From a virus, in IMG/VR virus record IMGVR_UViG_3300045988_179268, positions 224,001 through 288,000 of that record: a stretch of DNA of 64,000 bases. One strand, given 5' to 3'. The position numbers and the translations under genes are program-made. Shown here piece by piece: positions 21,678 through 55,060 of the stretch (position 1 is its first letter; every line of letters begins with the position of its first letter). A model generated the notes under the pieces. It ran no database searches and had not been told where the DNA came from. It saw only the letters and a program-made list of their open reading frames with translations.

Positions 21678-21678
21678 C

Positions 21679-26894: not shown

Positions 26895-27013
26895 CTCCTG
26901 TAACGGCGTAAAACCGTGTCCCAAGTCTTTCTGGGATGTGGGTATCAGAAGGGGTTTTTAAAGGTTTCACTCTTCTGTAAACAACATTCATGATTGATGA
27001 ATGCCTTTCTGTT

Positions 27014-29738: not shown

Positions 29739-30637
29739 TGGGCACGATGCTAGATTGGCTTAACAGTAATGGCACAACAACTGTTGTCAATACTGCGTTC
29801 ACTATCGTCCTCCTACTGATATTTCTTTTTCTTCTTATTCTGCACCTGCTAAGTAAGCGTGATAATGAAGGGGCGCTAGGTGCGCCTATCGACTTGACTG
29901 AGGTAGAGGAGGAAAGCGACCACGATTACGGAAGCTGGCTAGACCTCACCCCCGAGGAACCCATACTCGACACCGATGACACTAAAGACATCCCCCTTGA
30001 TTGGTCATACACTCCGATTCGTCGTGATGCAAGCGATTGGGCAAAGGAACTCGACTTAACTTTAGGTAGGCGCGCCACAACGTTCCGTACAGCCGGTTCA
30101 CAGCGGCGAACCTACACGAAGTACAACCCTCGTTCTGCACGACCGCAAGGCATTATTTATGCGCGAACTGAACAGGTCAGTGAGGCACGAAATATCAACC
30201 TGTATGTAGGCGTGGATACCTCAGCGTCTATGAATGAGTATGCACAGTCGCGTCGTGCCGCGCAAGCGCTTGATGAGATTATCCGTAAGGACAACTACCA
30301 CACGCTAGTGACATGCGTAGATACCGTTTTTAAGGGGTGGCAGAGCGGCAGTAAGGTTGAAGAGATTTTCGTATCCGGTGGCGGCGGAACCTACATGACT
30401 TCCTTCTTTGAAGAACTCGACAAGATTCGCTGTAACCCTAGCGAGAAACTTACCACCCCTGACGCGGCAGTACTGATTACCGACGGCGAGCTGAATGACT
30501 GCGACTGGGAGAACATTATTGGGCACACACAAACTTTCAGTAGGCAAGAAATGCCCGTATTCATTATCATCACTAACCCGAAGATTAATCCGCCGGAACC
30601 TTTAAAGAACTTCGCCTACGTTTACCACGCTGAATAA
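29738..30637 (+). CDS. von Willebrand factor A (vWA) domain protein with N-terminal TM helix
   Basis: MIDAS-like VGVDTSASM and downstream GGGGTYM. The start overlaps the upstream stop (alternative ATG 29747). Confidence 0.75.
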   Translation: MGTMLDWLNSNGTTTVVNTAFTIVLLLIFLFLLILHLLSKRDNEGALGAPIDLTEVEEESDHDYGSWLDLTPEEPILDTDDTKDIPLDWSYTPIRRDASDWAKELDLTLGRRATTFRTAGSQRRTYTKYNPRSARPQGIIYARTEQVSEARNINLYVGVDTSASMNEYAQSRRAAQALDEIIRKDNYHTLVTCVDTVFKGWQSGSKVEEIFVSGGGGTYMTSFFEELDKIRCNPSEKLTTPDAAVLITDGELNDCDWENIIGHTQTFSRQEMPVFIIITNPKINPPEPLKNFAYVYHAE

Positions 30638-36092: not shown

Positions 36093-36146
36093 AAATATTT
36101 CAGGCGAGACGCTAACTTTCTATTTAGCGTCTCGCCTGAAATATTT
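36093..36146. terminator. bidirectional hairpin terminator between convergent genes
   Basis: AAATATTTCAGGCGAGACGCTAA..TTAGCGTCTCGCCTGAAATATTT. Confidence 0.8.
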
Positions 36147-37288: not shown

Positions 37289-37362
37289 GCGCCGTTAGCT
37301 CAGCAGGTTAGAGCAAGGGACTCATAATCCCTGGGTCGCGGGTTCAAGCCCCGCACGGCGTA
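37289..37362 (+). tRNA. tRNA-Met or Ile2 (CAT)
   Basis: Acceptor GCGCCGT/ACGGCGT, anticodon arm AGGGA-CTCATAA-TCCCT, T arm GCGGG-TTCAAGC-CCCGC. It lacks initiator features. Confidence 0.85.
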
Positions 37363-37410
37363 CTCCATGCAAGCAATACATAAACAAACTATCAGAAATC
37401 TGGAGGGGAC

Positions 37411-37563: not shown

Positions 37564-38748
37564 ATGAGCTTCATTGTTAAAGGTAACAACTATAAGTACA
37601 CGGTAGCTACCCCGCGCTACATCACCAGTACTTACGCTATCCCCGAAGGTATCCAGCCAGCCCTATATAAGCTGACTGAGCAGGACGTTCCGCTTACTTA
37701 CGTTACGCGCAAGACGCATAACGCCGCAACCCGTAAGCCTGAGGAACGTATGCACCCTGTACTGTACAGCAACCCTGAGTCTCAGGCACCCTGGATGGTA
37801 TTGGGTGAAGAAGACCCTTACCTCATTAAGAAGGAGGGGCAGATTCGTCGTGGACCCGTTACGGTAGATATTGCCCCTGATGCTTTCACCAACCAGCCTG
37901 CACCTCTAGCCGTAGTTCTTGACGATACTGTTATCGAAAGCCCCTCGTCGTTAGGCTTTTCTCTCCCCAATGAACTTGGCTTCCTCTCAAGCTTTACATA
38001 CGCGACAGAGCCGTATGTGCTTCGTGGAGACACCTATGTTGGAGAAGAAGCGTTCCTCAATGGTGGCGTGTCTACTAAGGGGAAGGTTACTATCGGCAAT
38101 GCTTACATTGAAGCATCCTCACTCAAGGGCGGGAACATTAAAGTTGGCGGCGGCGCATACGTTGCCAAAAGCCGCATCAAGGGGAATGTGACCATCAACG
38201 GTATTGTCTTGGAAAACTCAACGCTAGACGGAAATATCAACTTCACCGTTCCAGGCAAGACATTCGACTACCAGAATGGAAACCGCCCAGACATGGATAA
38301 GGAACCCGTCATCGAAGGTTCCCGATACGTGTCTGACTTCATCAACCATAAGAAGGCACAGACGTTCTTCCAGCCGGAAACAGTCGAAGCACTATTCACA
38401 GTAAGCCGTGAAATTGTAGACAGCAACCAGCGACAAGCTACTTTCTGCCTCGATTCTGCAAACCACCGCAGTTTTTGTCGTTGTGCCATCTACTTGCCGC
38501 TGTACATTATGGCGCGTCCGGCGGCTATCCAGTACAACGCAATCATGAGTGGTGAGAGCAGTGTGAGTAAGCTCCCCGCCTGTCACCCCTACGAGTTTAT
38601 GACCGTAAACAGCCTCGAACCTCTACTGGACGCTGAAATTATGGCTAACTATAGTTCTAGTGCTATTGCTAAAGCTACCCCTGCTGATGCGACTGCATGG
38701 CGTAAGGCAGTTAAGAAGGTTACTGGCATCAAGCCGGTATGTGCGTAA
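37564..38748 (+). CDS. beta-helix + CHCC-motif family protein (paralog 1 of 8)
   Basis: Repeats GKVTIGNAYIEASSLKGGNIKVGGGAYVAKSRIKGNVTINGIV, then TFCLDSANHRSFCRCAIYLPLYIM. Confidence 0.8.
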   Translation: MSFIVKGNNYKYTVATPRYITSTYAIPEGIQPALYKLTEQDVPLTYVTRKTHNAATRKPEERMHPVLYSNPESQAPWMVLGEEDPYLIKKEGQIRRGPVTVDIAPDAFTNQPAPLAVVLDDTVIESPSSLGFSLPNELGFLSSFTYATEPYVLRGDTYVGEEAFLNGGVSTKGKVTIGNAYIEASSLKGGNIKVGGGAYVAKSRIKGNVTINGIVLENSTLDGNINFTVPGKTFDYQNGNRPDMDKEPVIEGSRYVSDFINHKKAQTFFQPETVEALFTVSREIVDSNQRQATFCLDSANHRSFCRCAIYLPLYIMARPAAIQYNAIMSGESSVSKLPACHPYEFMTVNSLEPLLDAEIMANYSSSAIAKATPADATAWRKAVKKVTGIKPVCA

Positions 38749-39627: not shown

Positions 39628-39924
39628 ATGTCACGTTTCGGTTATTCTGCCCTTAAGAAGAACTCTCGCGTCTCTGGCGCATCGGCGGCAACCCGCCGTA
39701 ATTCCATCCGCCGCACATCTTCATCTGGTAGCTCTTCTAGTAGCTACTACTCAGGTGGCAATGACTGGTACGACGATAGCTACTCTAGTTATGATGATTC
39801 TTCTTCCAGCTACAGCTCTTCGAGTAGTTCATCTAGTGATTACTGCTCTTCCTCTGACTCATCTTGGAGTTCCAGCTCATCTTACGATTCTGGCTCCTCT
39901 GACTGTGGCTCTTGGAGTGACTAG
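39628..39924 (+). CDS. Ser/Asp/Tyr-rich low-complexity acidic protein
   Basis: ATG 7 nt after AAGGAG. About two thirds of the sequence is S, D, Y or W. An overlapping frame (39620..39928) is also open but lacks this RBS spacing. Confidence 0.6.
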   Translation: MSRFGYSALKKNSRVSGASAATRRNSIRRTSSSGSSSSSYYSGGNDWYDDSYSSYDDSSSSYSSSSSSSSDYCSSSDSSWSSSSSYDSGSSDCGSWSD

Positions 39925-40109: not shown

Positions 40110-41711
40110 GTGTTGGCAAAAAATCAGACGTATAAAGCTTTCACTGTGCGCCCATCCTACATCCTAGACTTGAATGGCGAACTACTGGATAGCGCGCCTA
40201 CCATGTCTCGGCTTGTCTCTGAGGTTCGGGGCATCTCGACGTATGCAACCTATACGGTTCGTAATGATACTCAGCTTGCGGCTGACCTGGCTCAGGTTAC
40301 TGTTTCTCAGCCTGCGGTTGCTGGTCGTCGGGCTGGCGTTACTATTCCCCCTGAACTGGTAGTGAAGGGCAAGGTGTACAAAAACAAGGCGGGTAAGCTT
40401 GTAGAGGAAAAGGTTTTTGGTAGGTCGCGTAAGGAGTTGCTGTTTAGGCATCGCGTGGTCACTGAGCATCGTTCCTGGAAGGAGCGCGTTAAAGCCGCTA
40501 AGGGCACTTCTTCTAAGTATGTTTCGCAGGGCTGGAAGCGCACGGTGGATGCATCTGCCCCGTCGTATGGTGACGGTGATTTCATCAACTTAGGGGCTGT
40601 TGATAAGCAGTACGCGGTCATCGAGAACAACCCGGTTGTGGATGGTGAGATTGTTCTCAGGATGGTCATTCAGGGTCAGTGGTATCGACTAATTTTCACC
40701 TTCGACAACAAGCGGTTCCCTGAGGGAAAAGTCACTCTGCCTGTGGTAAAAGTAGAAAACAATCAGCCTGTTTTCATTTTCACCGTCGTGACCGATAATC
40801 CTATTGTCCAGTTTTCCGGCGACTACACTATCGGCGTAGACGTGGGTATCAACGATTACGCTACTGTCGTGGTTCGCAACACCAAGACTGGATGTATAGT
40901 CAAGGAAACCACCCTCTCACAGCGAGTCCACTCGCTCTGGAATAGTGTTCGTGCGTCTGAGAAGCAGGTAAAACAGCTCAACAAGAAAGCGGATAAGCTT
41001 CTTTATGACCGTCAGGCTCATATGTGTGCGTTTGATGAGGCGCAGTTGCACCGTGAAGCCGCATCTCGCAAGAAAAGGGAGCTGGCGATTCTTGCCGCAC
41101 AGGAAATCGCCTACTTGTCGCATCAGTACGACAACGCTGTTGTGGCTGTGGAAGACCTTGGTTGGGTTAGCAATACCATGCAGAACGGACGCTGGAATCG
41201 CGGCGCGTTCACCCAGTGGCTCAACCACTACGTCACTCAGAATGGCGGCTGGGTCGTTGCCGTAAACTCTGCAAACACGTCACAGTTGTGTCATATTTGC
41301 AATGAAAAAGTGACGCACCCTACTCATAGGGTTTCCCTCTGTCCTAAACATGGCGAGATGGATAGGGATGTTAATGCCGCCGCGAATATTGCCGCCCACG
41401 CCGCACCCAAGGTGGGGAAGGCGCGCAAGACTCGCGCGAAAAACCGCAAACTACAGGGCAAGGCACCGCTTAAAACCCCTGTCATCAGGGAAACCCTAAA
41501 GTATCCTGGGCGGGACAGGACTAAGAACTGCCCTACCCCAAAGAGAAAGAAACGCACTTCTAAGGGGGTGAATCTTCCCATTAGCCCCGCTAGAGTCGTT
41601 GTGACTACCGTACTAGCGGACTGGGATGCGTTCGGCATCTTGGAGACCGATATGGCGGCTATCAATCGCGGTAACGTAACTTACAAATGTAGGCTATGTA
41701 ACCTAAATTGA
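40110..41711 (+). CDS. large TnpB/Cas12-like RuvC nuclease
   Basis: RuvC-I TIGVDVGIND, RuvC-II VVAVEDLG, zinc finger CHICN..CPKHG, RuvC-III DRDVNAAANIA, and a Lys/Arg-rich C-terminal tail. The stop is TGA, followed by an open in-frame ORF. Confidence 0.8.
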   Translation: MLAKNQTYKAFTVRPSYILDLNGELLDSAPTMSRLVSEVRGISTYATYTVRNDTQLAADLAQVTVSQPAVAGRRAGVTIPPELVVKGKVYKNKAGKLVEEKVFGRSRKELLFRHRVVTEHRSWKERVKAAKGTSSKYVSQGWKRTVDASAPSYGDGDFINLGAVDKQYAVIENNPVVDGEIVLRMVIQGQWYRLIFTFDNKRFPEGKVTLPVVKVENNQPVFIFTVVTDNPIVQFSGDYTIGVDVGINDYATVVVRNTKTGCIVKETTLSQRVHSLWNSVRASEKQVKQLNKKADKLLYDRQAHMCAFDEAQLHREAASRKKRELAILAAQEIAYLSHQYDNAVVAVEDLGWVSNTMQNGRWNRGAFTQWLNHYVTQNGGWVVAVNSANTSQLCHICNEKVTHPTHRVSLCPKHGEMDRDVNAAANIAAHAAPKVGKARKTRAKNRKLQGKAPLKTPVIRETLKYPGRDRTKNCPTPKRKKRTSKGVNLPISPARVVVTTVLADWDAFGILETDMAAINRGNVTYKCRLCNLN

Positions 41712-42054: not shown

Positions 42055-42120
42055 AACATGGAATTTCACAACCATCTAAAAATGTGGTACAGTATAAGTA
42101 TTGGAAAGGAGGGTAACGGA

Positions 42121-43887
42121 TTGCCCACTCAGATTATTATGGCACCCCCGCCGGGTGCTCCCGCAGTAAACAGCATTACAGGTCAGCCCATCAATGGCGA
42201 AAAGCCTGAAAAGCCGCCTATTAAGGTGCGCAAGCTAACCCCTAAAGAGCTTGAGAGGTATATTCACTATATCCAGGAGCTTGTTAAGATTACCCCATAC
42301 TTCGCACCTATCCTTCGACAGTTGCGCCCCGCAATTATCAACACGGACAAGGCGTATATTGATAAGCATTGGCGAATCGCGCTCCCTGAGGGCTCCCTAG
42401 ATGACTATCTGGATTTTGAGACGTTTACGAAGATAATGCGTGAAGCGTTGCGTATCGTTATTATTCAGCGAGAACGCGCCGCCCGCGCAGGATACCGTGA
42501 CGACGAAACCGCCCGCGCATCGTTTGACCTGGAAATTAACCAGCGCCTTAGTGGTCTTGGTGGACGAATCAAGCTCGACCCTGAGAATGACTTTGTTCCT
42601 GCCGACTACGACCTCCCCCCGTTCGGTGTCGCGGAGGAGTTCTACGACACCATTCTCCAGTATTTCGAAGAGGAGGAACCCCCTTCGGGTGGCAACTCTT
42701 CTAATTCTAATAATGGTCAGCAGGGCGGGAAGTCTACCAACGGTAGCGGCAACGGAACCCCTACCTCTTCTAACGGGAATAAGGGCTCTGGTACCGCTTC
42801 TAAGGGCGGTTCAAGCTCCAACCAAGAAGAAGGTGGCGACAACCAGGAAGACCCCAACCAGGAAAACACTGGCGATAACGATACTAGCGATTCTGGTAAT
42901 GGCAACGGTGACGTTGAAGATAGCCAGGGTGATGAGAGTCAGGATTCTGGCAACGGGGCACCGCCTGACACTTCCGACGAGGAAGGTGGTGACGGCGGCG
43001 GCGGTAGTGACACAGGAGAAGATGGTGAAGAAGACGGAAGCGGTGGGATTACCGACGAGTTCGTGACCAACCACAACCTCCAGGCACTAATGGACGGCGC
43101 AGGCATCCAGGCGGCAAGCGAAATGGTCAAGCGTGAATCTCGTAAGGACATGCTCGCCAAGGTTCGCCAGGAACAGGCTAAAAAGAGCCGAGGCAAGGGT
43201 CACAACGAAAGCATCCTTGATTGGGTTACGAAGACCGAAGCAGGAAACACTGTTCACTGGACTGCATTGCTCAAGCGAACCCTGGCGACGGCTTCTAGCC
43301 AGCGAACCGCCGGTGAGACTTACCGAACATTCCGCAAGTACAACCGTCTAAACGTCATCATGCCGGATAACCGAGTCATGTTCCCTACCTACTATGACAC
43401 GAAGCCTCATGTTTACGTGGGTGTGGACACGTCAGGCTCCATGCTGAACGAAGTAGACTCCGGTCGCGCATTGGGTAATATCGACCGCATCTTGAATGAT
43501 TTTAGGAATCGCGCTGAAATGCGAATCTGCGCCATTGACACAAAAATGGGCGAGTTCCAGAATGTGAGGGACATCTCCGAAATTAATTTCGTTGGTGGTG
43601 GTGGCACTGAAATGGCTCCCTTCGTCAAGGCTCTCAATGAGTATGACAAGGGTACTGACAGCAAGCACCCGCCCGCCGCGCTAGGAATCCTTATTACGGA
43701 CGGATACATCGACTGGAAGGCTGTAGCTAGGGAACTTGGTCAGCGCCACAATTACAAGCTGGCTATCGTCCTCACCTCAGACCACAACAGAAACTCTGTG
43801 GTGGAGATGAACAACTACTTTTCCCACCTGCCGCTTAACGCACGACCTACCATCATTAAGATTGAGCGCCCGCGAAGCAACTTCTAA
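42121..43887 (+). CDS. vWA-domain protein with acidic low-complexity linker (CobT-like architecture)
   Basis: TTG 42121, 8 nt after AAGGAGGG and downstream of promoter 42080-42093. G/S/N/D/E-rich middle region. C-terminal MIDAS VGVDTSGSM and GGGGTEM. Confidence 0.75.
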   Translation: MPTQIIMAPPPGAPAVNSITGQPINGEKPEKPPIKVRKLTPKELERYIHYIQELVKITPYFAPILRQLRPAIINTDKAYIDKHWRIALPEGSLDDYLDFETFTKIMREALRIVIIQRERAARAGYRDDETARASFDLEINQRLSGLGGRIKLDPENDFVPADYDLPPFGVAEEFYDTILQYFEEEEPPSGGNSSNSNNGQQGGKSTNGSGNGTPTSSNGNKGSGTASKGGSSSNQEEGGDNQEDPNQENTGDNDTSDSGNGNGDVEDSQGDESQDSGNGAPPDTSDEEGGDGGGGSDTGEDGEEDGSGGITDEFVTNHNLQALMDGAGIQAASEMVKRESRKDMLAKVRQEQAKKSRGKGHNESILDWVTKTEAGNTVHWTALLKRTLATASSQRTAGETYRTFRKYNRLNVIMPDNRVMFPTYYDTKPHVYVGVDTSGSMLNEVDSGRALGNIDRILNDFRNRAEMRICAIDTKMGEFQNVRDISEINFVGGGGTEMAPFVKALNEYDKGTDSKHPPAALGILITDGYIDWKAVARELGQRHNYKLAIVLTSDHNRNSVVEMNNYFSHLPLNARPTIIKIERPRSNF

Positions 43888-43939
43888 CGCATCAATCCCC
43901 AATACCACTTAACCCACCTACAGATAGGAAATAATCACT

Positions 43940-45490
43940 ATGTCTGCAACCTCTAACAAGGCGACTGGAAACATCTCTGTCGCACCCCTGCCCCTCAAGA
44001 AGGCAATGAATTTCGTGAAGACCCTTGCCTTCCCGAAGAGCAACACTGACGGCTCCCTGCGCCCCGGCTTGTCCGTAGCGCTGATTGGCGAACCCGGTAT
44101 CGGTAAGACTGCCGCTATTCACGCTCTCAAGGATGAAATGAACTATGAAGGCGTTGAGGTACTTATCGGTTCTCAGCTGTCCCCTGAAATGATTGGTGGC
44201 ATCCCATCGGTGGGTGAAACCACTGTCACTAATGCTGACGGTGTTGTAGAACACATCCCTTCTACCGCATACCTAAACGAGCCGTTCCAGGTTCGTATCC
44301 GCGAGAAGAAGAAGGTTATTCTACTGCTGGATGAGTACAGCAACTCTGGTCCTAACGTCCAGGCGGCTATGCTGTACATCTTTAATGAGCGCCGCTTCCC
44401 GGATGGCACTGAAATTCCCGCAGAAACCGTTATCCTTTTGGCGACGAACTCTGCTAACTCTTCGGTGAACCCGAACCCCATTGCTCCGCCTACTCAGAAC
44501 CGTGTCGCATGGCTTCCTGTGACGCAGGATAAGGACGGCTGGGTTGAAGGCGCTATTGATAACTGGGGTAAGCCTATGCTTGAGCATGAGCCTGCTATCC
44601 GTAAGATGGTAGTCAAGTACATGTCTGACCGTGACGGCGCACTGCATGAGGACGACCGCGATTCCCGCCTTGACCGCTTTGCGTCGGATATGGATAACAA
44701 CTGCCGCGATGCCGCTACTTACGCATGGCGTTCACCTCGAAGCTGGGATAACCTCATTCACGCACTGGCTTTGGCACCTCATGACGACAAGGACACGTTT
44801 ATTGATTATGCGGAGACTGTTGCGACTGCCATTATTGGTTTTGACGGTTACAATGCGTTCAGGGGCGCACTTAGCCGCTACGCAGAGTCGCTGAATAGTG
44901 ATAATTCTGTCGCCATGATGACCATTGAAGAGATGTTCGCAGACCCCGGCAAGCTGTCTAAGGGCGTTAAGGAGAACGACCAGAACCTTGCATCTGATGT
45001 TGCTGAGCGTCTGGCTGATTACATTCAGGATAAGATTGACGGCGTGCCTAAGTCTGGCGCTTCCAAGAAGCAGAAGGATGCCCTGGGTGAGGATATTGCG
45101 AAGGCATGTAGCTTCATCTACACCCTTGTGGATGCTTCGTCTCCGTTGAACAATGTTGCATTCCGCGCACCTCTGCATGTGACGCTTACCAAGATTATTG
45201 ATGCACTCGGTAAGCGAATGGACATCTTGGGTATTGACCCGGCTAAGCCTGGTCTTCACGTCCCGCACTCCGCACTCTCTGACATGTACTCTAAGTACCT
45301 GCTGAATAACCTGCCGCTGGCTTCTATGGGCCTTCCTGCTGACACGAATGTGAATCCTCAGAGTGCCAAGGAGGAGAAGGAGCTTAAGAAGAAGCTAGAA
45401 AAGGTGATGTGGCACCCGCTGTCTATCCCTACCACTTTGATGGCTCAGGCATACTCTAGCCTGCATGATGTAGATAACAATAAGCGTTAA
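43940..45490 (+). CDS. AAA+ ATPase, MoxR/CobS-like
   Basis: Walker A GEPGIGKT, Walker B ILLLDEY, AWRSPRSWDNLI. Paralog of 30665..32125. Confidence 0.8.
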   Translation: MSATSNKATGNISVAPLPLKKAMNFVKTLAFPKSNTDGSLRPGLSVALIGEPGIGKTAAIHALKDEMNYEGVEVLIGSQLSPEMIGGIPSVGETTVTNADGVVEHIPSTAYLNEPFQVRIREKKKVILLLDEYSNSGPNVQAAMLYIFNERRFPDGTEIPAETVILLATNSANSSVNPNPIAPPTQNRVAWLPVTQDKDGWVEGAIDNWGKPMLEHEPAIRKMVVKYMSDRDGALHEDDRDSRLDRFASDMDNNCRDAATYAWRSPRSWDNLIHALALAPHDDKDTFIDYAETVATAIIGFDGYNAFRGALSRYAESLNSDNSVAMMTIEEMFADPGKLSKGVKENDQNLASDVAERLADYIQDKIDGVPKSGASKKQKDALGEDIAKACSFIYTLVDASSPLNNVAFRAPLHVTLTKIIDALGKRMDILGIDPAKPGLHVPHSALSDMYSKYLLNNLPLASMGLPADTNVNPQSAKEEKELKKKLEKVMWHPLSIPTTLMAQAYSSLHDVDNNKR

Positions 45491-45510
45491 GGTGTAGTTT
45501 GACACGAAAA

Positions 45511-45572
45511 GCCGTACCAATTTAAGTAAATCCACGGGGTTAATACTTAAATTGGTACGGCTTTCGTCTTTT
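45511..45572 (+). terminator. rho-independent terminator
   Basis: GCCGTACCAATTTAAGTA..TACTTAAATTGGTACGGC followed by TTTCGTCTTTT. Confidence 0.8.
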
Positions 45573-45678
45573 CCCTTAATAATTAGTGCATTGATAGCGG
45601 CTTGCAAAATATGTGGTACAATATCTATATACAGTTTTTCGTTTACTCACTAGAGAATCCACAGAGAGGTAACTGGCA

Positions 45679-46596
45679 ATGAGCCTCACAGACCCGCGCA
45701 ATCAAGAAACCACTGGCAAGCTTTGCGCCGCCTCCCCAAGCATTTCTGACAACGCAAAAGTCACGGGTGAATCCACCTTCACCGGAAACCCTAGCTCCCT
45801 ATCGGGAAACGCACATGCCCACAACGTAAACCTTACGGCGTGTACCCTGTCTGGCAATGCAGAGGTTGCCAACGGTATCCACATGGGGCTTACCGCAACC
45901 GGTAATGCATCTCTTCACGGGTGTACAACAATGCTTAAAAGCGCCATTTCGGGGAATGTGAAGGTTCGCGGGAACATTCTTGTATGTGGCGGAAAGCTTA
46001 GCGGCAACGTTGAAATTAACGACTTTGGAGCCGCCGGTGACCCGTGCCCCGTCTTCCCCTGCAACAACGGAGACAGACTATATGACATCGCCCACCTTGC
46101 AAGCACTACGGCGGCTTCCGGCAAAGCCGTCATTAAAGAGCTAGCCTATAGTTCTTTGGCAATAATCAACGCTAATGGCGACTACAGTAGCCTGCGTATC
46201 TGCCTCAACGGTGAAGCTCACACGGAAAACAATCCTCGATGCCACTGCCTCCTCTGGCTCCCCCTCCTACTTGTATGCGACCCTATCGCTACGCACTATT
46301 TCCTCCGCGTAGGTGGTAAGCTACAGCCTATGGGTGAAGGTCATAAGAGCGTGTATGCCGAAGATAGTATCCGCAACCCCTATAATGCATTTAGCTACAC
46401 CAGCCTTGAAACGCTCATGCGGAAGTCTCTGGAAGAGCTACCGGATAAATCCTCTGATGATATTTGTAGCCTACTGCTAACGAACATTGAGGCACACAAT
46501 ATGGGCGACAGCATCCCCGATGAATACCCTGAGAGCCTATTAAGTCAGTGGGCAGACATCATCAAGGTAGCAACCGGAACCAATATCTTCGATTAA
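45679..46596 (+). CDS. beta-helix + CHCC-motif family protein (paralog 2)
   Basis: GN-type repeats (SGNAHAHNV, SGNAEVANG, TGNASLHG, SGNVKVRGN, SGNVEIN), then RICLNGEAHTENNPRCHCLLWLPLLLV. Promoter at 45609-45622. Confidence 0.8.
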   Translation: MSLTDPRNQETTGKLCAASPSISDNAKVTGESTFTGNPSSLSGNAHAHNVNLTACTLSGNAEVANGIHMGLTATGNASLHGCTTMLKSAISGNVKVRGNILVCGGKLSGNVEINDFGAAGDPCPVFPCNNGDRLYDIAHLASTTAASGKAVIKELAYSSLAIINANGDYSSLRICLNGEAHTENNPRCHCLLWLPLLLVCDPIATHYFLRVGGKLQPMGEGHKSVYAEDSIRNPYNAFSYTSLETLMRKSLEELPDKSSDDICSLLLTNIEAHNMGDSIPDEYPESLLSQWADIIKVATGTNIFD

Positions 46597-46617
46597 GAGC
46601 TAAGGAAAGAACCACCT

Positions 46618-47865
46618 ATGCCTGAACAGACCGTCGTTGAGCCTTATGCTCACGTTTACACTGTCCTTGATTACTCCAAGGCAGATACCGAGAAAATCAC
46701 CACACCCACAGGTAAAGCACCAGCAGTTATTACCAAGGTTCAGAAAGCTGGCGGTAAGCTTATTGCCATCAATGAACGCCGGTGTGAAAATGTTGCTAAG
46801 GGTGCGCAATTTGTCGTGGAATCTCCCGCCAATATGCCGGATGTGAATTTTGGCAATACTGATGAAATTGCCCCTACTGAGTTTTGGGCACCCACCAACG
46901 GAGAGGTTCGCCACCCGGCACGCATGGGCTGGCTTTACGCCACCAGCCCTAAAACTATTGTGGCTGTGGTTGATGAGGCTGTACTGGAGGGGCGCTCTAG
47001 CTTTGATGGCGTGAACGTCGTTAAGGGGCGTGCTGTCGTGAAGGATGCCCGCCTGGAAGGAAAATGCTCCGTAGAAGATGACGCAACCATTAATGGCGGC
47101 TGTCATACATTCCTCAAGATGTTCAATAAATCAGCAATTACTGGTAATGTAGTCACTGACTGCGTAAAGCTTACAGGCAATGCCCGGATTATGGGTAATG
47201 TCAGTGTCCACAATCTACATTTATCTGGCAATACCCTGATTGACGCACGTGGCTGTGTCCCCGAAGGAGAGCATGTTAATGTTGGTCCTTGGTTTGGCAG
47301 GCTCATTAATGACCTTACCGAGTTTGACACGTTGCAACTTTTTGGATACTCAGACGAGATGAGCCTTAAGAACTTGTGTCGCATTGCAGAAGCGGTGGGT
47401 GGCAATCTTATGCCACCTGATTCACGTGGAGAGAACCCTTGGCTGAGGGAGGTGACGTTCTGCCTCGACCCGGAGGTTCATGCCCAACATATTGACCGTT
47501 GCCGTTGTGCCCTATGGAACCCCTTGGCGCTCCTTGGCAACGCCGCCGCGATTCATTATATTGTTCGAGCTGAGGGTCTTCTTAAGCCCCCTGGTGAAGC
47601 CGTAACACCGTATCTGGACAGTTCAATGAGTAACCCTTTTAGCTCATTTTCAATTCTCCAGCTGGAAGACTTAATGAGTGAAGTGTATTCTGGCATGTAT
47701 GTTGCAGACCGTTATTACGGCAGTAGCTTCGAGAAAGATAGGGTTACGGAGATGTACATTGAGAACTACGATGCATTCGGAGTGGATATTCCTAGTGAGG
47801 ATGTTATTACTTCTGAATGTCTCCAACAGTTACGGAGCATCATCTTAGGCAAGCCCTGGCTGTAG
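46618..47865 (+). CDS. beta-helix + CHCC-motif family protein (paralog 3)
   Basis: ITGNVVTDCVKLTGNARIMGNVSVHNLHLSGNTLI, then TFCLDPEVHAQHIDRCRCALWNPLALL. RBS AAGGAAAG. Confidence 0.8.
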   Translation: MPEQTVVEPYAHVYTVLDYSKADTEKITTPTGKAPAVITKVQKAGGKLIAINERRCENVAKGAQFVVESPANMPDVNFGNTDEIAPTEFWAPTNGEVRHPARMGWLYATSPKTIVAVVDEAVLEGRSSFDGVNVVKGRAVVKDARLEGKCSVEDDATINGGCHTFLKMFNKSAITGNVVTDCVKLTGNARIMGNVSVHNLHLSGNTLIDARGCVPEGEHVNVGPWFGRLINDLTEFDTLQLFGYSDEMSLKNLCRIAEAVGGNLMPPDSRGENPWLREVTFCLDPEVHAQHIDRCRCALWNPLALLGNAAAIHYIVRAEGLLKPPGEAVTPYLDSSMSNPFSSFSILQLEDLMSEVYSGMYVADRYYGSSFEKDRVTEMYIENYDAFGVDIPSEDVITSECLQQLRSIILGKPWL

Positions 47866-47981
47866 GTGCTGGGTGTAGTGGCATATATCTCCCGATATGT
47901 GCCACTACTTTTATGAGTTCCATACATATCCAAGCAATATGTGGTACACTATTTGTAGTTAATTATTTTTTAGGAGGAAGA

Positions 47982-49193
47982 ATGAGTGACACTCAGATTA
48001 CTATCACCTGCGAAACTGTAGCTCCGAGTGAGGGGCGTAACCCAAAGGAGGATACGCTCGTCATTGGTGCTACTAAGGTAAAGGCGCTAAATCAGCTCAT
48101 CGAATCGGATAAGAGCCTGATTTACGCATATGCGCCCGGCAATACGCCTGAAAACAACTATCCCGTAATCGTAGCCACCAGTGAAGGTAATCTCCCTGAC
48201 GTGGACTTCGATAACCCCACAGGGGTAGACGGCAATGAGTATCCTGCCACCAGTAAGTTCATGCGTGCCAACAGCTACTCTGACTACACTTCGCTAGTCA
48301 TTGACAACGCGCGCGTATTTGGCGATGTAACTTTCAATGAAACATCTCTCATTGAAAACAATGCCACCGTTCGCGACACTACCCTAAACAATGTGACCGC
48401 ATCCGGCAACTCCAGTATTACTGGCGGCTCCCACGATAGGCTGACCATCAAGAATAAGGCGACCATTAATGGCGTGACGACCGAGAAGTGCACCATCAAG
48501 AACAACGCCTATATTAGTGGAAACATCAGGTTTAGCAATGTGACGCTTGAGGGAGATATTAAGATTGACATCCCCCATTCAGACACCGCACTTAATCTCG
48601 CAGAGAACACCGAGAAGCTTCTTTATAACATTAAGGAAACTAAACCTAACCGTAAGACTAGGCAATTCTACAACGCGGGAAAGTCTTTCGATAGGAAGAG
48701 TCTGCTAAACATGCTGTACATCACGAAGACGGTACTTGAAGACTCGAACGCCCTAAGTGGCGTATGGTGTATCGACCACGCCACACACAAGGAAAACATG
48801 GGACTCTGCCACTGCATGTTGTGGTACCCGCTGTACCTTATGGGTAACGGAATCGCAATGCAGTACTTCTTCCGCGCAGACGGCATCCTACAGCCTGCCG
48901 GTCATGCCCTAAGTGTAAATGTGGAAGACTCTATCCGCAACCCTTACAGCGCGTTCACAAACGTAATGATGGAAGACCGTATGCGCCTCGTCATTGATGA
49001 AATCCTTCAAAGCGACGCTCACCCTACCGCATCTTACGGAACTGAGACTGAAACATCTAAGCGATGGAAGGAAGCGGTTACCACATATATTCCTGAAACG
49101 AAGAACTTTCCTGTAGTGCTAAGCCGCACAAAGTGGTGGAACTACAGGTGTGACATCATTGGCGCATCTGAGCTTCGGTTTGGAACACTCTAA
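47982..49193 (+). CDS. beta-helix + CHCC-motif family protein (paralog 4)
   Basis: ATG 47982 after AGGAGGAAG, downstream of promoter 47937-47950. ASGNSSITGG, ISGNIRFSNVTLEGDI, then VWCIDHATHKENMGLCHCMLWYPLYLM. Confidence 0.8.
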   Translation: MSDTQITITCETVAPSEGRNPKEDTLVIGATKVKALNQLIESDKSLIYAYAPGNTPENNYPVIVATSEGNLPDVDFDNPTGVDGNEYPATSKFMRANSYSDYTSLVIDNARVFGDVTFNETSLIENNATVRDTTLNNVTASGNSSITGGSHDRLTIKNKATINGVTTEKCTIKNNAYISGNIRFSNVTLEGDIKIDIPHSDTALNLAENTEKLLYNIKETKPNRKTRQFYNAGKSFDRKSLLNMLYITKTVLEDSNALSGVWCIDHATHKENMGLCHCMLWYPLYLMGNGIAMQYFFRADGILQPAGHALSVNVEDSIRNPYSAFTNVMMEDRMRLVIDEILQSDAHPTASYGTETETSKRWKEAVTTYIPETKNFPVVLSRTKWWNYRCDIIGASELRFGTL

Positions 49194-49287
49194 AGACGAG
49201 TCATAACCAGGTTGGGGGTGCTAAAGTTTTTTATTAAATTTTGGCACCCCTAACATAACTACCTTATAGAAGTAAGGAGCCTCAGCT

Positions 49288-50292
49288 GTGAATCACGGAA
49301 CCGTAAGCACTGTTTCTGTAAGCGGCGTGACAACGAACGGCACCTGTTCCTTTAGAGGTAACGCTCAAGTGTCGGGCGGAACACACACGAATCTAGTTGC
49401 TAATGATGACACAAAAATTCTTGGCAATGTCAGTACTTATAGAGTGACTGCAACAGGTAAAACCACCATCTCAGGGAACATTCACGTGTACAAAGCGCAG
49501 ATTGGTGGGGATACCGTTATTGAGGTTCCTGACGATTTGCCTGAGCCTGCTATTCTTGCGGCTAAAAACAGCGCTAATGGAGTATCTGAGTATAACCAAC
49601 TGCGTTATGACTTCAAAGACATTACACCACACCCTACACGCCAGGGTACGGTGTGGGATAGCTCGTATCTAGCTCCAGCCGCCGGTATCTTACGCGGATT
49701 AACCGCAACATACGGACTATTGAAAAGCGCCTCATGGAGAGAGTTCACTATGTGCCTCAAAGCATCTAAGCATAAGGCACATAATTTACACTGTCGTTGC
49801 CTCATGTGGTATCCGCTCATCATGGCTGGCGACCCACTGGCGTTACAGTATTTGTTCCGGGTAGAAGGTTTGTGTGTTCCGTCAGTCGAGAATGTGGGTT
49901 ATCCATCCCTTGATGGCACTATCAGGAACCCGCTTAGCGCACTTAGCTTCTCAGCTTTAGAAAACCTCTTGTCAGAAACAATATCCAGCATCATGGAAGA
50001 TTGCCTACAAGATGACGTGGACACTACCGATGCAGACCTATACCCGTGGGGCGTATATGTTGCAGAGGACGAACTAGAGAGTGCAGATGCGCAAAGAGTG
50101 ATGAATAACATCTATTTGAATTTATGTCGAAACATTCAACCTATCTATCACCCTGTTACAGTGAGCCAGCATCAAATAAAGTCAAATTTTAATACCGAGT
50201 ACCACACCACCTGGTATAAATATGTTAGACAGTTGCCAGAAAGCTGGCTAACACACTACAGGAATATTGCTGGTACATCCCCCACCATTTAA
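49288..50292 (+). CDS. beta-helix + CHCC-motif family protein (paralog 5)
   Basis: GTG start after AAGGAG. RGNAQVSGG, LGNVSTYRV, ISGNIHVY, then TMCLKASKHKAHNLHCRCLMWYPLIM. Confidence 0.75.
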   Translation: MNHGTVSTVSVSGVTTNGTCSFRGNAQVSGGTHTNLVANDDTKILGNVSTYRVTATGKTTISGNIHVYKAQIGGDTVIEVPDDLPEPAILAAKNSANGVSEYNQLRYDFKDITPHPTRQGTVWDSSYLAPAAGILRGLTATYGLLKSASWREFTMCLKASKHKAHNLHCRCLMWYPLIMAGDPLALQYLFRVEGLCVPSVENVGYPSLDGTIRNPLSALSFSALENLLSETISSIMEDCLQDDVDTTDADLYPWGVYVAEDELESADAQRVMNNIYLNLCRNIQPIYHPVTVSQHQIKSNFNTEYHTTWYKYVRQLPESWLTHYRNIAGTSPTI

Positions 50293-50294
50293 AG

Positions 50295-51392
50295 ATGAAG
50301 AAGGAGACAATGGAAGAGTTTATTGCGCCTTTCACAGTGAGCTACACTGACCGCCGCCGCAACCCCAAGAAGCACACCTTATATATTTCGACAACAGAGG
50401 AGAATGCTCCTACCGGCGAAGGATTCAATATTTCGCCAGATGCCCAATTGGGCACTATTAAGCATCTAACTCTTAATCACTGCTCCGTTGATAGTGGTGC
50501 TGTGGTGCTTAGTGGCAAGCATAGGGATTCATCTTTTGATAGCGGTACTTATATTGATGGCAACGTTGATAGTGTTGGAGTAAGCTTTCAGCCGTCACAT
50601 GAGGGACGTATCTATATCGAGGGTGACATTACTATTGTGGGGCGTAATATTTGCGGGGATTTCACTCTCAAGGCAACCACTAGTGGCGAAACAAAAATTT
50701 CGTTCGGTCAGCCGCGACTGCTTTATTTTCAAAATAAAGGAGACGGCGACTTACTTTACCATCTGCCATCCCTCCTTGCTGTTGAAGGTGAAGATTATGA
50801 AGTTGGTATCATTCGCCCGCACACCACTGATTTAAGCAGGGGAGACGCACAGAAAAAGCTAAGCGCACTTGAGAAGAACACTGAAAACCTCTCTCAAAGT
50901 GGTGTGACAGTGAAAACTTTCTGTGTCGCTTCTAAAATTCACAACTCTGATAGTTGCCGCTGTGGAATGTACTACCCGCTATTGCTGTTGCGCCACCCAC
51001 TTGCAATTACATATTTCATCAAAGCTGTTGATGGGCTGGAGCAGTATATCCCCGAGGCGTACAGTAACCTCACCTGGGCACAGCTCACTCAGATGCTTAA
51101 TGATGTTAATGAACGTAATGATTATCTGATTGATAAAATTGCGGATGAGTTGGGAACTAATATTGGCGAGGACAGTTTGAGTGTCAAGCTTTACGAAACT
51201 CTCAAGCGTGACTATGGGCTACACGACCTGACATTATTGTTTGGTGAGTTAAAGCCTGCGATGAAGGCAGATATTACGCGGGCGCTTACTATTGATAGCG
51301 ACCGTGGCGTGTATTTCATGCATAGTGTCGCGGGTAGTGACAAGTTACATAAACGTTCCTATCGGAAGATTCTAGAAGGAGAGGTCTTCTAG
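50295..51392 (+). CDS. beta-helix + CHCC-motif family protein (paralog 6)
   Basis: ATG 50295, or ATG 50313 after GAAGGAGA. Weaker repeats. TFCVASKIHNSDSCRCGMYYPLLLL. Confidence 0.75.
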   Translation: MKKETMEEFIAPFTVSYTDRRRNPKKHTLYISTTEENAPTGEGFNISPDAQLGTIKHLTLNHCSVDSGAVVLSGKHRDSSFDSGTYIDGNVDSVGVSFQPSHEGRIYIEGDITIVGRNICGDFTLKATTSGETKISFGQPRLLYFQNKGDGDLLYHLPSLLAVEGEDYEVGIIRPHTTDLSRGDAQKKLSALEKNTENLSQSGVTVKTFCVASKIHNSDSCRCGMYYPLLLLRHPLAITYFIKAVDGLEQYIPEAYSNLTWAQLTQMLNDVNERNDYLIDKIADELGTNIGEDSLSVKLYETLKRDYGLHDLTLLFGELKPAMKADITRALTIDSDRGVYFMHSVAGSDKLHKRSYRKILEGEVF

Positions 51393-51532
51393 CGGTAGGA
51401 TAGGTATTGAAGTGTCCCCTTGCGATTTATTATCTCAAGGGGACACTTTGCGTCACGCCGCTACTGGACAACAATTTAAATATGTGGTACACTTTTAGTG
51501 AAATTACTTATCTACTACCATAAGGAAGCATT

Positions 51533-53134
51533 GTGACCACCCAGCACACCACTAAGGCACTGCTGAAATACAGCCCCGGTTGGACACCCATCACGAACAC
51601 AACCAGCCTCCCCATCTGGCAACATGGTGGTTCTAACGTCATCCCTAAGAAGAAGCAACGAACCATCCAGGAACCTGATGGTGTTTGGCGTATCCCTCTT
51701 AGTGAAACCTTAAAAGACGGACGCGGAACCCTGCACACCCCTTTCACGAACGTTTGGAGCGAAGTAGACAGAAAGGTTCGCCCTGAGAATTGGCAGTACC
51801 TATCCGTTCTCTACAGTACTGCCGGAAAATACAATAAGGATAGTGGCGCAATGGAGCCAAATCCTGACGCACCCCTACCGACCGTAATTCGTGACCCTAA
51901 CGTCAATATTCCCGCCGTTTTTAGTGATGCAGAACAGGTTCTCTACAAGTATGATAATGTGTATTCACTGCCCGGATGTGTTGAAAACCTTCTAGGTGGC
52001 AACTATATCTACGGTCGAGCTACCGTAAACCCATATGAGGTTGATATGCGCAATGCAGGTTGTCGAATCTCGGGGGATGCCACTATTGAAAGCGGTGTAA
52101 TTACTAAAAACTCTATGCCACATGGAGTGTTTGACGGTCTGCCGCTAACGTCATATTCCAGCAACTCGAAGCTGTTCATTAAAGGTAAAACTGTCGTTCG
52201 CAACAGTGCCATCTACCGTGACTGCGCATTGACAGGAAATACTCTTATTGAAGACAGTTTGCTAGAGAGCGTCCACGTGACCAGTGATAATATCGACCTA
52301 CATCTCAGCGATGTAAAAATTCTGGGTGCTGATTTTGCAAGTGAAGGCAATATCGGCATCTCTGGAGCTAAGGTTAAGGGTCTTCATGCCAGGCGAGACG
52401 CAAACCTCAGCCTGTCTGGTCAGGCAAACATTGAACATGTCTGGCTTGAAGGCGGAAATGCTCACATTGAAGGAAATATTGGCTTCATGCTTAGCGCTTT
52501 TGGTGGTTCCTTCAAGCTTCGAGCAACAGCCCCCAAGGATGGTCGTGGTAGTGACTACCTTTTTGACCGCGTGAACGGATACTACATCCTGCCTCTCATG
52601 TTGTCTCAGCGCGACTTTGAATCCTGTATCCACTGGGATGATGGCTGGACTTCGCCAGAGACAGTTTTCTCTATTAATGTGCTGGGGACGCTTAACCTGA
52701 GCACTCAATTGCTACGGAAGCCGCATAATATTGAGCAGTTCTGTTGTCTGCCGGACACTCACTTGAACGACCAGTGCCGTTGCGCATTGTACTACCCGCT
52801 GTTTCTGATGTGTCACCCGATGGCTGTTACATACTTCCTTAAGACGGGCGGCTTGGATAATTCGGTTCCTGTACAGTATCAGAGCTTGTCTATTGCCCAG
52901 CTTGAAAGCAGTATGGATAACCTTATTGTTGAGGTGGGAGAGAATCTGGATATGCGCCAGTCTGTCATTCATTTTATTGGACTCATGAACGGATATGTGC
53001 CCGATATTGGAAGTGTGCAAGAGATGAAAGATACTATTTGTAAAATTTACGGTGTAGACGTTGCTGATATTGTGCGGGACAAGTGTGATTATCGACTGCC
53101 ATTGGGTCGTAACACGCGGTTTTTCCGCCGTTAG
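51533..53134 (+). CDS. beta-helix + CHCC-motif family protein (paralog 7)
   Basis: GTG after AAGGAAG and promoter at 51480-51493. Long repeat region (LTGNTLIEDS.., SGQANIEHVWLEGGNAHIEGNIGF), then QFCCLPDTHLNDQCRCALYYPLFLM. Confidence 0.8.
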   Translation: MTTQHTTKALLKYSPGWTPITNTTSLPIWQHGGSNVIPKKKQRTIQEPDGVWRIPLSETLKDGRGTLHTPFTNVWSEVDRKVRPENWQYLSVLYSTAGKYNKDSGAMEPNPDAPLPTVIRDPNVNIPAVFSDAEQVLYKYDNVYSLPGCVENLLGGNYIYGRATVNPYEVDMRNAGCRISGDATIESGVITKNSMPHGVFDGLPLTSYSSNSKLFIKGKTVVRNSAIYRDCALTGNTLIEDSLLESVHVTSDNIDLHLSDVKILGADFASEGNIGISGAKVKGLHARRDANLSLSGQANIEHVWLEGGNAHIEGNIGFMLSAFGGSFKLRATAPKDGRGSDYLFDRVNGYYILPLMLSQRDFESCIHWDDGWTSPETVFSINVLGTLNLSTQLLRKPHNIEQFCCLPDTHLNDQCRCALYYPLFLMCHPMAVTYFLKTGGLDNSVPVQYQSLSIAQLESSMDNLIVEVGENLDMRQSVIHFIGLMNGYVPDIGSVQEMKDTICKIYGVDVADIVRDKCDYRLPLGRNTRFFRR

Positions 53135-53295
53135 TAATCATGCCTGACAGTGGCATTGAATGGGGGTGTACTTGGCGACATAAATCGCCAAGTACACCCC
53201 CATTCTTAAGTATCTACCCAATCTTGCAACACTTCTAATTTGTGGTACAATAAACTTGATAAGCTATTTTTGCATTAACAAAAAGGAGAATACTA

Positions 53296-55002
53296 ATGAC
53301 TTCCACTTCAATGGACTGCCGCCACCTTATCAAGTATGCGCGAAACCTTAGCAAGAATACTCGATTCCCTGTTTTTCAGCACGCTTACCCTCAAGTAACT
53401 AAAGACATTCAGCCCTTTACCTTCGAGTCAGTCCCTAAGGAGCTTGTCTTGTCCGTTAAGGGTGATGACCTGGCTCCTAGAACTGGCCCCTACTATTATA
53501 CGGGGGAATGGTATGAGTCTAATCAGGCGCACCCATACTTTCACTACGTACTCTACGACACCCTGTTTTGGGGTAGTAGAGTTTATAATGAAGACTACTC
53601 TTACCCCTCAGTCTTTGAAGATATTGAGAAGAACCTTCCAAGCCTTCATAAGCACCTCACCATTGCTGGACGAAAGGGACGCAACACCTACTCCCTTCCG
53701 CCGGAAGTCTCTAGGAATATCATTGGCGGCAATAAGATTTACGAAGATGCGAAGGTAGACCCTTTCACCGTAAACATGCGCAATGCTAGGGCGACAATTA
53801 GGGGAAAAGCATCTATTGTAAATACTACTATTAGCAATGAATCCTCTGAGGACGACTTCGAGATTCCTCGCGGCAGAACCTCTTCCGACTATAGAATCAA
53901 TATCGGTGGAGACGTTGAAATTAAGGACTCCGCTATTTATCATGGTACACAGATTGAAGCCTCTGGAATTATTGCCGGTAGCACCATTGATTCCTTTTGG
54001 CACTATGACAAATACGAGGAATACCCTAAGCTTACATTAGATGTAGCCAATAGCACCTTAAAGGGTATTGTTGCTAATAATTATGATGAAGATAATTTCC
54101 CAAACCAATCCATTAAAGTCATTGCAAAGGATGCAACTATTGATGGGGGCTCTATTAAGGGTTCTTCTTTCCTCAGCATTGAGGGCGCTAGTTGCACTGG
54201 CATAGAGGTGTGGAACAGTTCTGTATCAATCCTTACCCCTGGTGTAGCACTAAGCTCAACTTCCTTCTATGATGGGAGTAGCTTCACTCTGAGTGGCAAT
54301 TTTTCATCATTCTGTACGTCATTCTATGGTGCTGGAGTTATTGATATTGAGAGCGACGACCACTGGCTACCTGGAGATAATGCATGGGGGGAGGGTCGCA
54401 AGATGGCAACCTTCAACCTGTTATACTCCGTCCCCTATCTCGCTTCCGCTATTTTTAACCAACCCATTGAAGAGATTGAGAGGCGGTTTCATGTAAATGG
54501 CGAGCTGGATACATATAACTACTCTAAGGTTTTGGAGAAGTCTATCTCGGGAACATTGCGTGCCGCACGTTCAGTTATTCAAACCGGCGCTACTATCAAT
54601 AGGTTCTGTGTTGCCCCCGATGCACACGTCTACGATGACTGCAAATGTGCGCTGTACTACCCACTTCTCCTTGAAGGTGATACAGCCGGGATTCTCTACT
54701 TCCTTAAGGTGTCAAACTTAGAGGAACATATTCCGCTCCCGTACAAGTATTTGTCGTTTGCACAGCTACGAGACATGATGACCAGCATTGTGAATGAGCG
54801 AACAGATGCGTCTTGGGATGGAAACTGGTGGGAATTGTCCTCAGAGTATTCTAAGAAAATTTCAATGCAGACTCTTAATGACACTATCCGTACACCACAG
54901 GATGTTCGCGATGCCGTGACTGGATTTTGTGGACTAACTGATTTCAGTAAACTTGTTGGACATGCAACGGATGGTTTCAACTTCTCCAATCTTACTGAGT
55001 GA
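53296..55002 (+). CDS. beta-helix + CHCC-motif family protein (paralog 8)
   Basis: RBS AAAGGAGAA and promoter at 53224-53251. Repeats, then RFCVAPDAHVYDDCKCALYYPLLLE. The stop is TGA, with TAA four codons later. Confidence 0.8.
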   Translation: MTSTSMDCRHLIKYARNLSKNTRFPVFQHAYPQVTKDIQPFTFESVPKELVLSVKGDDLAPRTGPYYYTGEWYESNQAHPYFHYVLYDTLFWGSRVYNEDYSYPSVFEDIEKNLPSLHKHLTIAGRKGRNTYSLPPEVSRNIIGGNKIYEDAKVDPFTVNMRNARATIRGKASIVNTTISNESSEDDFEIPRGRTSSDYRINIGGDVEIKDSAIYHGTQIEASGIIAGSTIDSFWHYDKYEEYPKLTLDVANSTLKGIVANNYDEDNFPNQSIKVIAKDATIDGGSIKGSSFLSIEGASCTGIEVWNSSVSILTPGVALSSTSFYDGSSFTLSGNFSSFCTSFYGAGVIDIESDDHWLPGDNAWGEGRKMATFNLLYSVPYLASAIFNQPIEEIERRFHVNGELDTYNYSKVLEKSISGTLRAARSVIQTGATINRFCVAPDAHVYDDCKCALYYPLLLEGDTAGILYFLKVSNLEEHIPLPYKYLSFAQLRDMMTSIVNERTDASWDGNWWELSSEYSKKISMQTLNDTIRTPQDVRDAVTGFCGLTDFSKLVGHATDGFNFSNLTE

Positions 55003-55017: not shown

Positions 55018-55060
55018 CGTAAACCCGCCCATATTTTTTGGGTGGGTTTACGTTTGTTTA
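55018..55060 (+). terminator. rho-independent terminator
   Basis: GTAAACCCGCCCA..TGGGTGGGTTTAC followed by GTTTGTTT. Confidence 0.75.

Follow-up and report, generated by a model that had tools for sequence, protein, structure and literature searches.

What purpose might be served by eight divergent copies of one protein, encoded close together in viral DNA? The question is raised by positions 224,001 to 288,000 of the IMG/VR record IMGVR_UViG_3300045988_179268, a stretch of 64,000 nucleotides referred to here as the window, in which seven consecutive genes (members A to G, positions 45679-55002, the array) and one gene set apart from them (member H, 37564-38748) encode a beta-solenoid joined to a conserved module with the ligand order Cys-His-Cys-Cys. 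Neither the module nor its signature nor the architecture as a whole is described in the searched libraries and literature, while the solenoid is a known fold type. As a tentative answer, the genes may supply a repertoire of soluble proteins that share a constant, metal-stabilised docking module and act within the cell as adaptors or inhibitors.

The eight family genes and their architecture

All eight open reading frames (ORFs) named in the original prediction are present (Table 1). When a profile hidden Markov model (HMM) of the module was run against all window ORFs of at least 80 residues, it matched exactly these eight, and with E-values of 1e-25 to 1e-31 the family likeness is not due to chance. 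Together the genes fill 16% of the window ((9324+1185)/64000), in keeping with the first estimate of about one sixth. For gene C the start first noted, 47982, is correct rather than that of a longer ORF from 47817, because it is served by an AGGAGG ribosome-binding site and the promoter motif at 47940 lies upstream of it. The paralogs are old, sharing 25-37% identity with one another, and their products are mildly acidic (pI 5.0-6.6), with no hydrophobic N-terminal stretch in any of them as judged by eye.

Four parts make up each protein: an N-terminal region that is poorly conserved and may be missing, a beta-solenoid whose length varies, the module of ~100 residues and a variable tail. Member A has a short N-terminus followed by a solenoid at about residues 20-115, and in member F the N-terminal region and the solenoid are both long. 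The alignment and the module profile thus bear out the three-part layout described earlier (variable N-terminus, beta-helix run, conserved block), but that list lacked a fourth conserved element found in most members, a C-terminal amphipathic helix followed by [YTFC]-G-[IVLF]-x4-5-L-[FWY]. A helix-turn-helix or SAP/HeH-like reading of this terminal motif was dropped, as no profile backs it.

Table 1. Coordinates of the family genes, their neighbours and their putative transcription signals in the window (aa, residues; nt, nucleotides)
Feature	Position	Strand	Details
Member H, 394 aa, apart from array	37564..38748	+	module aa 271-377 (nt 38374-38694); C295, H301, C305, C307
Member A, 305 aa	45679..46596	+	module aa 151-260 (nt 46129-46458); C175, H181, C188, C190
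Member B, 415 aa	46618..47865	+	module aa 258-367 (nt 47389-47718); C282, H288, C295, C297
Member C, 403 aa	47982..49193	+	module nt 48696-49025; C263, H269, C276, C278
Member D, 334 aa, GTG start	49288..50292	+	module nt 49681-50010; C156, H162, C169, C171
Member E, 365 aa	50295..51392	+	module nt 50850-51173; C210, H216, C221, C223
Member F, 533 aa, GTG start	51533..53134	+	module nt 52670-52993; C404, H410, C415, C417
Member G, 568 aa	53296..55002	+	module nt 54535-54858; C438, H444, C449, C451
Small beta-solenoid protein (phrog_5070, YdcK-like), 175 aa	36689..37216	+	without module
vWA-like protein (DUF2201)	42058..43887	+	first gene of pair before array
MoxR-type AAA+ ATPase (AAA_5)	43940..45490	+	directly upstream of array
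Second vWA-like (DUF2201) and AAA+ ATPase pair	29738-30637 and 30665-32125		upstream of 42058-45490 pair
Promoter motif TGTGGTACAAT, extended -10 type	45612..45622	+	genes A and B
Promoter motif TGTGGTACACT	47940..47950	+	gene C, probably D and E
Promoter motif	51483..51493	+	gene F; -35 TGGACA at 17 nt
Promoter motif	53241..53251	+	gene G; -35 TTGCAA at 16 nt
TGTGGTACAMT sites, including	2776, 8417, 15510, 16624, 17306, 18222, 27078, 29049, 36618, 45612, 47940, 51483, 53241, 55097		
Terminator-like hairpin	45507..45565	+	between AAA gene and gene A
Intrinsic terminator	47875..47908	+	after gene B; 15-bp stem then TTTTAT
Hairpin	49211..49254	+	after gene C, -29 kcal/mol; without T tract, no promoter after
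Hairpin	51410..51448	+	after gene E
Hairpin	53158..53205	+	after gene F; gap fold -48 kcal/mol
Terminator	55018..55052	+	after gene G; stem then TTTGTTT

The Cys-His-Cys-Cys module

In alignments of the eight window members, made with MAFFT from the full proteins and from the C-terminal block, the residues C, H, C, C, P, L and Y are invariant, and the ligands are spaced C-x5-H-x3-6-C-x-C. An exhaustive HMMER search of 1.84 billion protein representatives returned 49 clusters, of which 47 are true members and two are repeat artefacts (28 have E < 1e-10); a word-indexed protein search had given only 1 and then 5 matches, so that the exhaustive search was needed to see the family. In the 47-sequence module alignment the four ligands and one Tyr are invariant and an Ala, a Pro and a Leu nearly so, and a full-length family alignment has the same invariant columns, none of them outside the module. 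Of the 116 sequences with the motif that were collected, 115 have the spacing C-x5-H-x3-7-C-x-C. Among the distinct module-positive ORFs of the related loci described below, 63 of 65 carry the motif, the other two being cut by the end of the locus. The Cys and His positions are therefore not lost in wider homologs, which was a check that the original prediction had proposed, but stay invariant across ~47 distant clusters. With the profile and the signature C-x5-H-x3-7-C-x-C...Y, the family now has a working definition.

An AlphaFold2 model of the gene B module, built with the 47-row alignment, is all-alpha with a predicted local distance difference test score (pLDDT) of 80.2, rising above 90 for residues 41-100, and a predicted template modelling score of 0.74. 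In it the His lies just before a short helix and the CxC at the start of the next. Foldseek found no match to this model (best E 2.3 in PDB and 2.6 in BFVD), and on the strength of the prediction the module is possibly a new fold. The module region has no Pfam match at E <= 1, zinc-finger and Fe-S (iron-sulphur) families included; none of the 47 modules matches PHROGs and NCBIfam gave none. The PADLOC models of anti-phage defence gave no match save one at E 0.041, treated as noise. A PDB profile search with the module gave nothing credible, its best match (E 0.0087) covering only the helical half and not the Cys/His segment. The literature search found no description of the family. The earlier statement that it cannot be assigned to anything known thus holds, with neither HMM nor structure searches placing it among tail fibres or acyltransferases.

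The most economical reading of the invariant C-x5-H...C-x-C pattern is a small metal site, probably for zinc. A papain-like Cys-His dyad was rejected because the C-x5-H spacing is too close and the module is all-helical.

The beta-solenoid part

The full-length AlphaFold model of gene A is poor (pLDDT 56), but strands at residues 10-114 with a pLDDT of ~70-79 indicate a beta-solenoid, and the Gly-Asn repeat of the gene has a period of ~16-17 residues. Foldseek paired this full-length model with generic solenoids, and no evidence was drawn from those matches. Bactofilin (PF04519) scores best in gene C, at 21.1 bits against a cut-off of 27.9 (others 17.5, 11.6 and 11.5), and is matched at E<0.01 by only two of the 44 wide family members. 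Hexapep (PF00132) matches one of the 44 (E 0.0096, below cut-off), LbH_EIF2B (PF25084) reaches 12 bits against a cut-off of 54, and YdcK (NF040481) 19 bits in genes B and C against 350, with PDB 2f9c at E 0.017. The tail-fibre family phrog_4549 is matched by gene B only, at E 0.058, and the P22 and 9NA tailspikes have Foldseek E > 0.1 from the low-confidence full-length model. Pentapeptide repeats (PF13576 and relatives) score 14.4 bits, in gene C only, against a cut-off of 27; a pentapeptide-repeat reading was rejected, given this score, a period that is not five and non-significant Foldseek matches to Qnr and AlbG. No more than a generic beta-solenoid can be recognised in the N-terminal part, whose scores for the bactofilin, YdcK and hexapeptide families stay under threshold.

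The small solenoid gene at 36689 had been described as a beta-helix-only relative. It matches phrog_5070 at E 3e-24, a family that genes A-C match weakly (E 1e-5 to 5e-4), and scores 43 bits against YdcK NF040481 (cut-off 350); phrog_5070/YdcK-like solenoids are spread across phages of many hosts, with matches at 94 places in 77 records. Direct comparison with the family was non-significant (hhalign probability 1.8%, BLASTP E >= 0.03). The common repeat type stands but family membership cannot be demonstrated, and judged from these comparisons a relationship to the eight genes is doubtful.

Distribution and selection in related phages

Contigs were fetched for eight representatives of this lineage-specific multigene family, each locus (labelled L001 and so on) covering at most ~21 kb of its contig. 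All eight lie on contigs of 81-380 kb with almost no Pfam matches, which we read as a clade of uncultivated huge phages. In most of them the members form tandem arrays, whose copy number runs from 2 to at least 12: two each in L002, L009 and L013, at least five in L011, six in L005, seven in L015, eight in the window and at least 12 in a row in L007. The 90%-identity cluster of member G has 177 members, on contigs of up to 366 kb among the matches listed. Against L005 or L007, the genes flanking the window array on its downstream side pair off as 1:1 orthologs (31-61% identity), whereas for most array genes such a partner is lacking and the matches are of ~25-30% identity. Within the long array of the L004/L007 phage (L004 4768-6768; L007 4792-6792), two genes of 299 and 362 residues have no module match; these may be unrelated insertions or members that have lost the module. 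In L001, the closest relative, the gene B homolog (9094-10351) is broken, a little upstream of the Cys-His segment, into ORFs of 292 and 163 residues in different frames, reflecting either a frameshift or an assembly error.

The array directly follows the genes for a DUF2201 vWA protein and a MoxR-type AAA_5 ATPase in the window, L001, L005, L011, L012 and L015/16. Both pairs of the window are upstream of family members; such a double arrangement is also found in L011 and L012, and the member H type gene sits between the two pairs in the window and L011. The orthologs of member H in L001, L005, L011 and L015 lie further upstream of the pair that precedes the array. The pair of L013 is separated from the members by ~8 kb, and the 10 kb around those of L002 and L009 gave no recorded vWA or AAA match. 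Because of these exceptions the adjacency may be inherited gene order and not a functional link.

Ratios of nonsynonymous to synonymous substitution rates (dN/dS) between the window and L001 are 0.21 for gene A, 0.16 and 0.07 for the N- and C-terminal parts of gene B and 0.08 for gene H, compared with 0.05 for the AAA gene. Pooled over ten ortholog pairs, the values are 0.15 for the N-terminus and solenoid, 0.14 for the module and 0.18 for the tail. Within 90% clusters, the density of variable sites is two- to fourfold that of the AAA gene in four of five clusters; these sites are evenly spread in three of four family clusters and concentrated in the N-terminal part in the P0045 cluster. Each paralog is kept by purifying selection, and the genes are functional and somewhat faster-evolving than their neighbours. 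Of the diversifying duplication suggested earlier, duplication with copy-number change between relatives is upheld, but positive selection is not (dN/dS ~0.15).

Transcription of the array

A generic scan for sigma-70 promoters and terminators stayed at chance level and was uninformative. Inspection of the gaps between genes revealed the motif TGTGGTACAMT, that is TGTGGTACA[A/C]T, which by comparison with an expectation of 2.3 occurs at 28 sites in the window, almost always intergenic and on the coding strand. Written as TG-n-TACA[A/C]T it corresponds to an extended -10 element, frequently accompanied, 17-18 nucleotides upstream, by a TTGCAA-like -35 element, and it would be read by the sigma-70 RNA polymerase of the host. 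The motif precedes genes A, C, F and G, the gene after the array and the small solenoid gene at 36689, and also tRNA-Met, the transfer RNA (tRNA) clusters, the RNA ligase gene and the vWA gene. It is present in L001, L005, L007, L011 and L015 and absent in L002, L009 and L013, and it helps to annotate transcription units across the clade.

No large gap in the array is without a strong hairpin (-25 to -48 kcal/mol). From the motif sites and these hairpins, the array can be divided into promoter-gene-hairpin cassettes comprising A and B, C with probably D and E, F, and G, and the claim that several members have their own promoter and terminator is borne out. Sharing the sigma-70-like promoter of the tRNA genes, the array would be expressed in the same class. 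This class cannot be called early, since the window has no late or structural gene for contrast.

Possible functions of the family

The repertoire of soluble intracellular adaptors or inhibitors, which we favour tentatively, would work as follows. The four invariant ligands would hold one structural metal ion, most probably Zn2+, and thereby lock the module's first helices; together with the C-terminal motif, the constant module would dock all paralogs onto one common partner of the phage or the host, and the divergent solenoids would each have a separate target. Common docking combined with divergent target recognition leads to the proposal of an adaptor or inhibitor repertoire, which would serve host takeover or counter-defence and be made by the host RNA polymerase along with the tRNAs, outside the virion. 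The genes have an accessory character that speaks for such a role, with a copy number of 2 to at least 12 and few 1:1 orthologs beside orthologous flanks, as do the moron-like cassettes and the promoter motif held in common with tRNA clusters, RNA ligase and vWA genes. The non-structural nature of the assignable neighbours, the mildly acidic products without a hydrophobic N-terminus and dN/dS values of 0.07-0.21, which mark real and functional genes, also count in its favour. Several points weigh against it. Positive selection, which an arms-race repertoire might show, was looked for in ortholog dN/dS and in the distribution of variable sites and none was detected; the 3-Cys/1-His site could bind an Fe-S cluster rather than zinc; the window has no recognised late or structural gene; and the conserved MoxR-vWA adjacency fits a role in virion assembly. 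A bolder and rather speculative version would make a new metal-binding fold the 'handle' by which each solenoid paralog captures a different host or defence protein for one common machine, possibly MoxR-vWA. That the family represents a truly new system is likewise doubtful.

MoxR-vWA pairs of jumbo phages have been predicted to be virion-assembly chaperones (Iyer et al. 2021, PMC7824862), a role for which tail development in the archaeal virus ATV was cited. The array stands right after such a pair in at least six related contigs, and its products might accordingly be virion proteins (fibres, spikes or decoration) or substrates of assembly, the solenoid binding a receptor and the module serving attachment or folding under the chaperoning of MoxR-vWA. 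Beta-solenoids are typical of tailspikes, weak Foldseek matches to the P22 and 9NA tailspikes were seen, though with a poor model, and receptor-binding proteins are generally known to vary often in copy number. Yet the C-terminus is conserved and the N-terminus variable, the reverse of the usual fibre layout, and the best PHROG match to a tail-fibre family is the marginal one of gene B, with no significant structural match. The promoter is that of the tRNA genes, the pair is distant or unrecorded in L013, L002 and L009, and no structural-family match was found among the neighbouring genes tested: within the window, the assignable neighbours of the family are all non-structural (tRNAs, RNA ligase, TnpB, ATPases). 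We consider a virion role unlikely, and the receptor-binding function suggested in the original prediction gained no positive evidence.

The MoxR-vWA pair next to the array would also suit metalloproteins with a redox-active or Fe-S Cys3-His centre, loaded or remodelled by MoxR-vWA and acting as enzymes or sensors. MoxR-vWA pairs are generally known to mature metal centres (for example CoxD/E, NorQ/D and CbbQ/O), the 3-Cys/1-His ligands are invariant and each of the two pairs in the window is upstream of family members. But besides the four ligands and the Tyr no polar residue is invariant, which leaves no obvious catalytic centre, the ligand order and all-alpha fold are unlike the CDGSH-type Cys3-His clusters, and the adjacency might be mere inherited gene order; such a function appears quite improbable. 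The solenoid half might instead suggest bactofilin-like, polymer-forming scaffolds that build an intracellular structure during infection, given that the best Pfam matches are to Bactofilin (E 3.6e-4 and 5e-3) and that the Gly-Asn period of gene A is as described above. With scores below the gathering cut-off, matches in so few wide members and polymerisation leaving at least eight divergent paralogs with a metal module unexplained, we give this little credence. Least probable of all, and very much so, are left-handed beta-helix enzymes of the acyltransferase type with differing substrate specificities; weak matches to Hexapep, LbH_EIF2B, YdcK, GlmU and LpxA point that way, but they fall far under their cut-offs, Hexapep is found in a single wide member and the solenoid region has no invariant residue across the family.

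Relation to known systems

The N-terminal half of the family is a Gly-Asn-rich beta-solenoid like those of Bactofilin/DUF583 (PF04519), YdcK (PF18836, NF040481, PDB 2f9c), phrog_5070 and phrog_7964, whose models it matches weakly and always under the curated cut-offs. Unlike the eight genes, these families lack the Cys-His-Cys-Cys helical module and the C-terminal motif, and the phrog_5070 and phrog_7964 phage proteins are short and mostly single-copy per genome. The closest parallel for the expansion itself is Bacillus phage G, with a lineage-specific expansion of a zinc ribbon to ~35 copies (Iyer et al. 2021, PMC7824862). Both are large jumbo-phage paralog expansions of a small Cys/His domain that binds metal (predicted here). 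The zinc ribbon is a beta fold, whereas the family module has ~100 residues, is predicted to be all-alpha, differs in ligand spacing and is fused to a solenoid. The ZAS anti-sigma (H-x3-C-x2-C) and CDGSH Fe-S domains are also small with three Cys and one His, and ZAS is helical, but ligand order and spacing differ from C-x5-H-x3-7-C-x-C.

A similar logic of tandem genes that combine a variable repeat with a small constant C-terminal module is, to our knowledge, found in the poxvirus ankyrin-repeat/PRANC (F-box-like) and African swine fever virus (ASFV) multigene families, whose copy number varies between strains as it does in the phage family. The resemblance does not extend to sequence or fold, the viruses concerned infect eukaryotes, and the SCF ubiquitin ligase that is the partner of the constant module there has no counterpart shown here. 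The MoxR AAA+/vWA pairs of jumbo phages correspond to the neighbour of the array (DUF2201 and AAA_5), not to the family itself, and a functional link between the two is hypothetical.

Genomic context of the window

The proteins of the window have exact copies on a metagenomic contig of 319,497 bp, and related contigs reach 412 kb; we read the window as part of an uncultivated huge phage. GenBank phages (~50,000 records) contain no match to the array by megablast or to gene B by tblastn, and the AAA neighbour has only matches of ~23% identity there, for example in Vibrio and Pseudomonas phages. Neither the AAA protein nor gene G had a relative in scans of GTDB genomes, which hence gave no clue to the host.

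Besides the family, the window encodes 27 tRNA genes (at 16719-23173, 26814-26895 and 37289-37363), and the other genes assigned are an RNA ligase, three TnpB/transposase-like genes and the two vWA/AAA+ pairs. One tRNA (17328-17399) has the anticodon UCA, called tRNA-SeC by ARAGORN, and may be a UGA suppressor. TnpB/Cas12f-like genes are found in the window at 40110-41711, in L001 at 10334-11468 (minus strand), in L007 at 17187-18740 and in L012 at 17634-18905. The site used in the window is empty in L001, which carries an element immediately 3' of its gene B homolog instead. Because their positions differ between closely related phages, these elements appear mobile within the clade; a comparison of the TnpB region with E. 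coli genomes gave no match. A further transposase-like gene lies at 6230-7384.

Three other features of the window were recorded. A segment of ~1 kb (24389-25455) is G+T-rich, with a GC skew of +0.46, an AT skew of -0.55 and short tandem repeats, and codes for a Gly/Val-rich ORF of 330 residues and a mirror ORF on the opposite strand, with a promoter-like motif at 24389. An ORF of 98 residues (39628-39924) is extremely Ser-rich and of low complexity and is kept in L001 (3842-4138). A perfect bidirectional terminator-like hairpin with a 20-bp stem (36096-36143) follows the gene ending at 36087.

Implications

These phages give up to ~13 kb (at least 12 genes) to a single family, and despite the scale of this investment the family is absent from domain, phage-family and structure libraries. 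Should the logic of a constant module with variable binders hold, it would be a rare documented case of a multigene repertoire for host interaction in phages and could yield many small inhibitors of bacterial proteins akin to engineered binders. If the module does act as a handle, the family would be to bacteriophages what the host-range multigene families are to poxviruses and ASFV.

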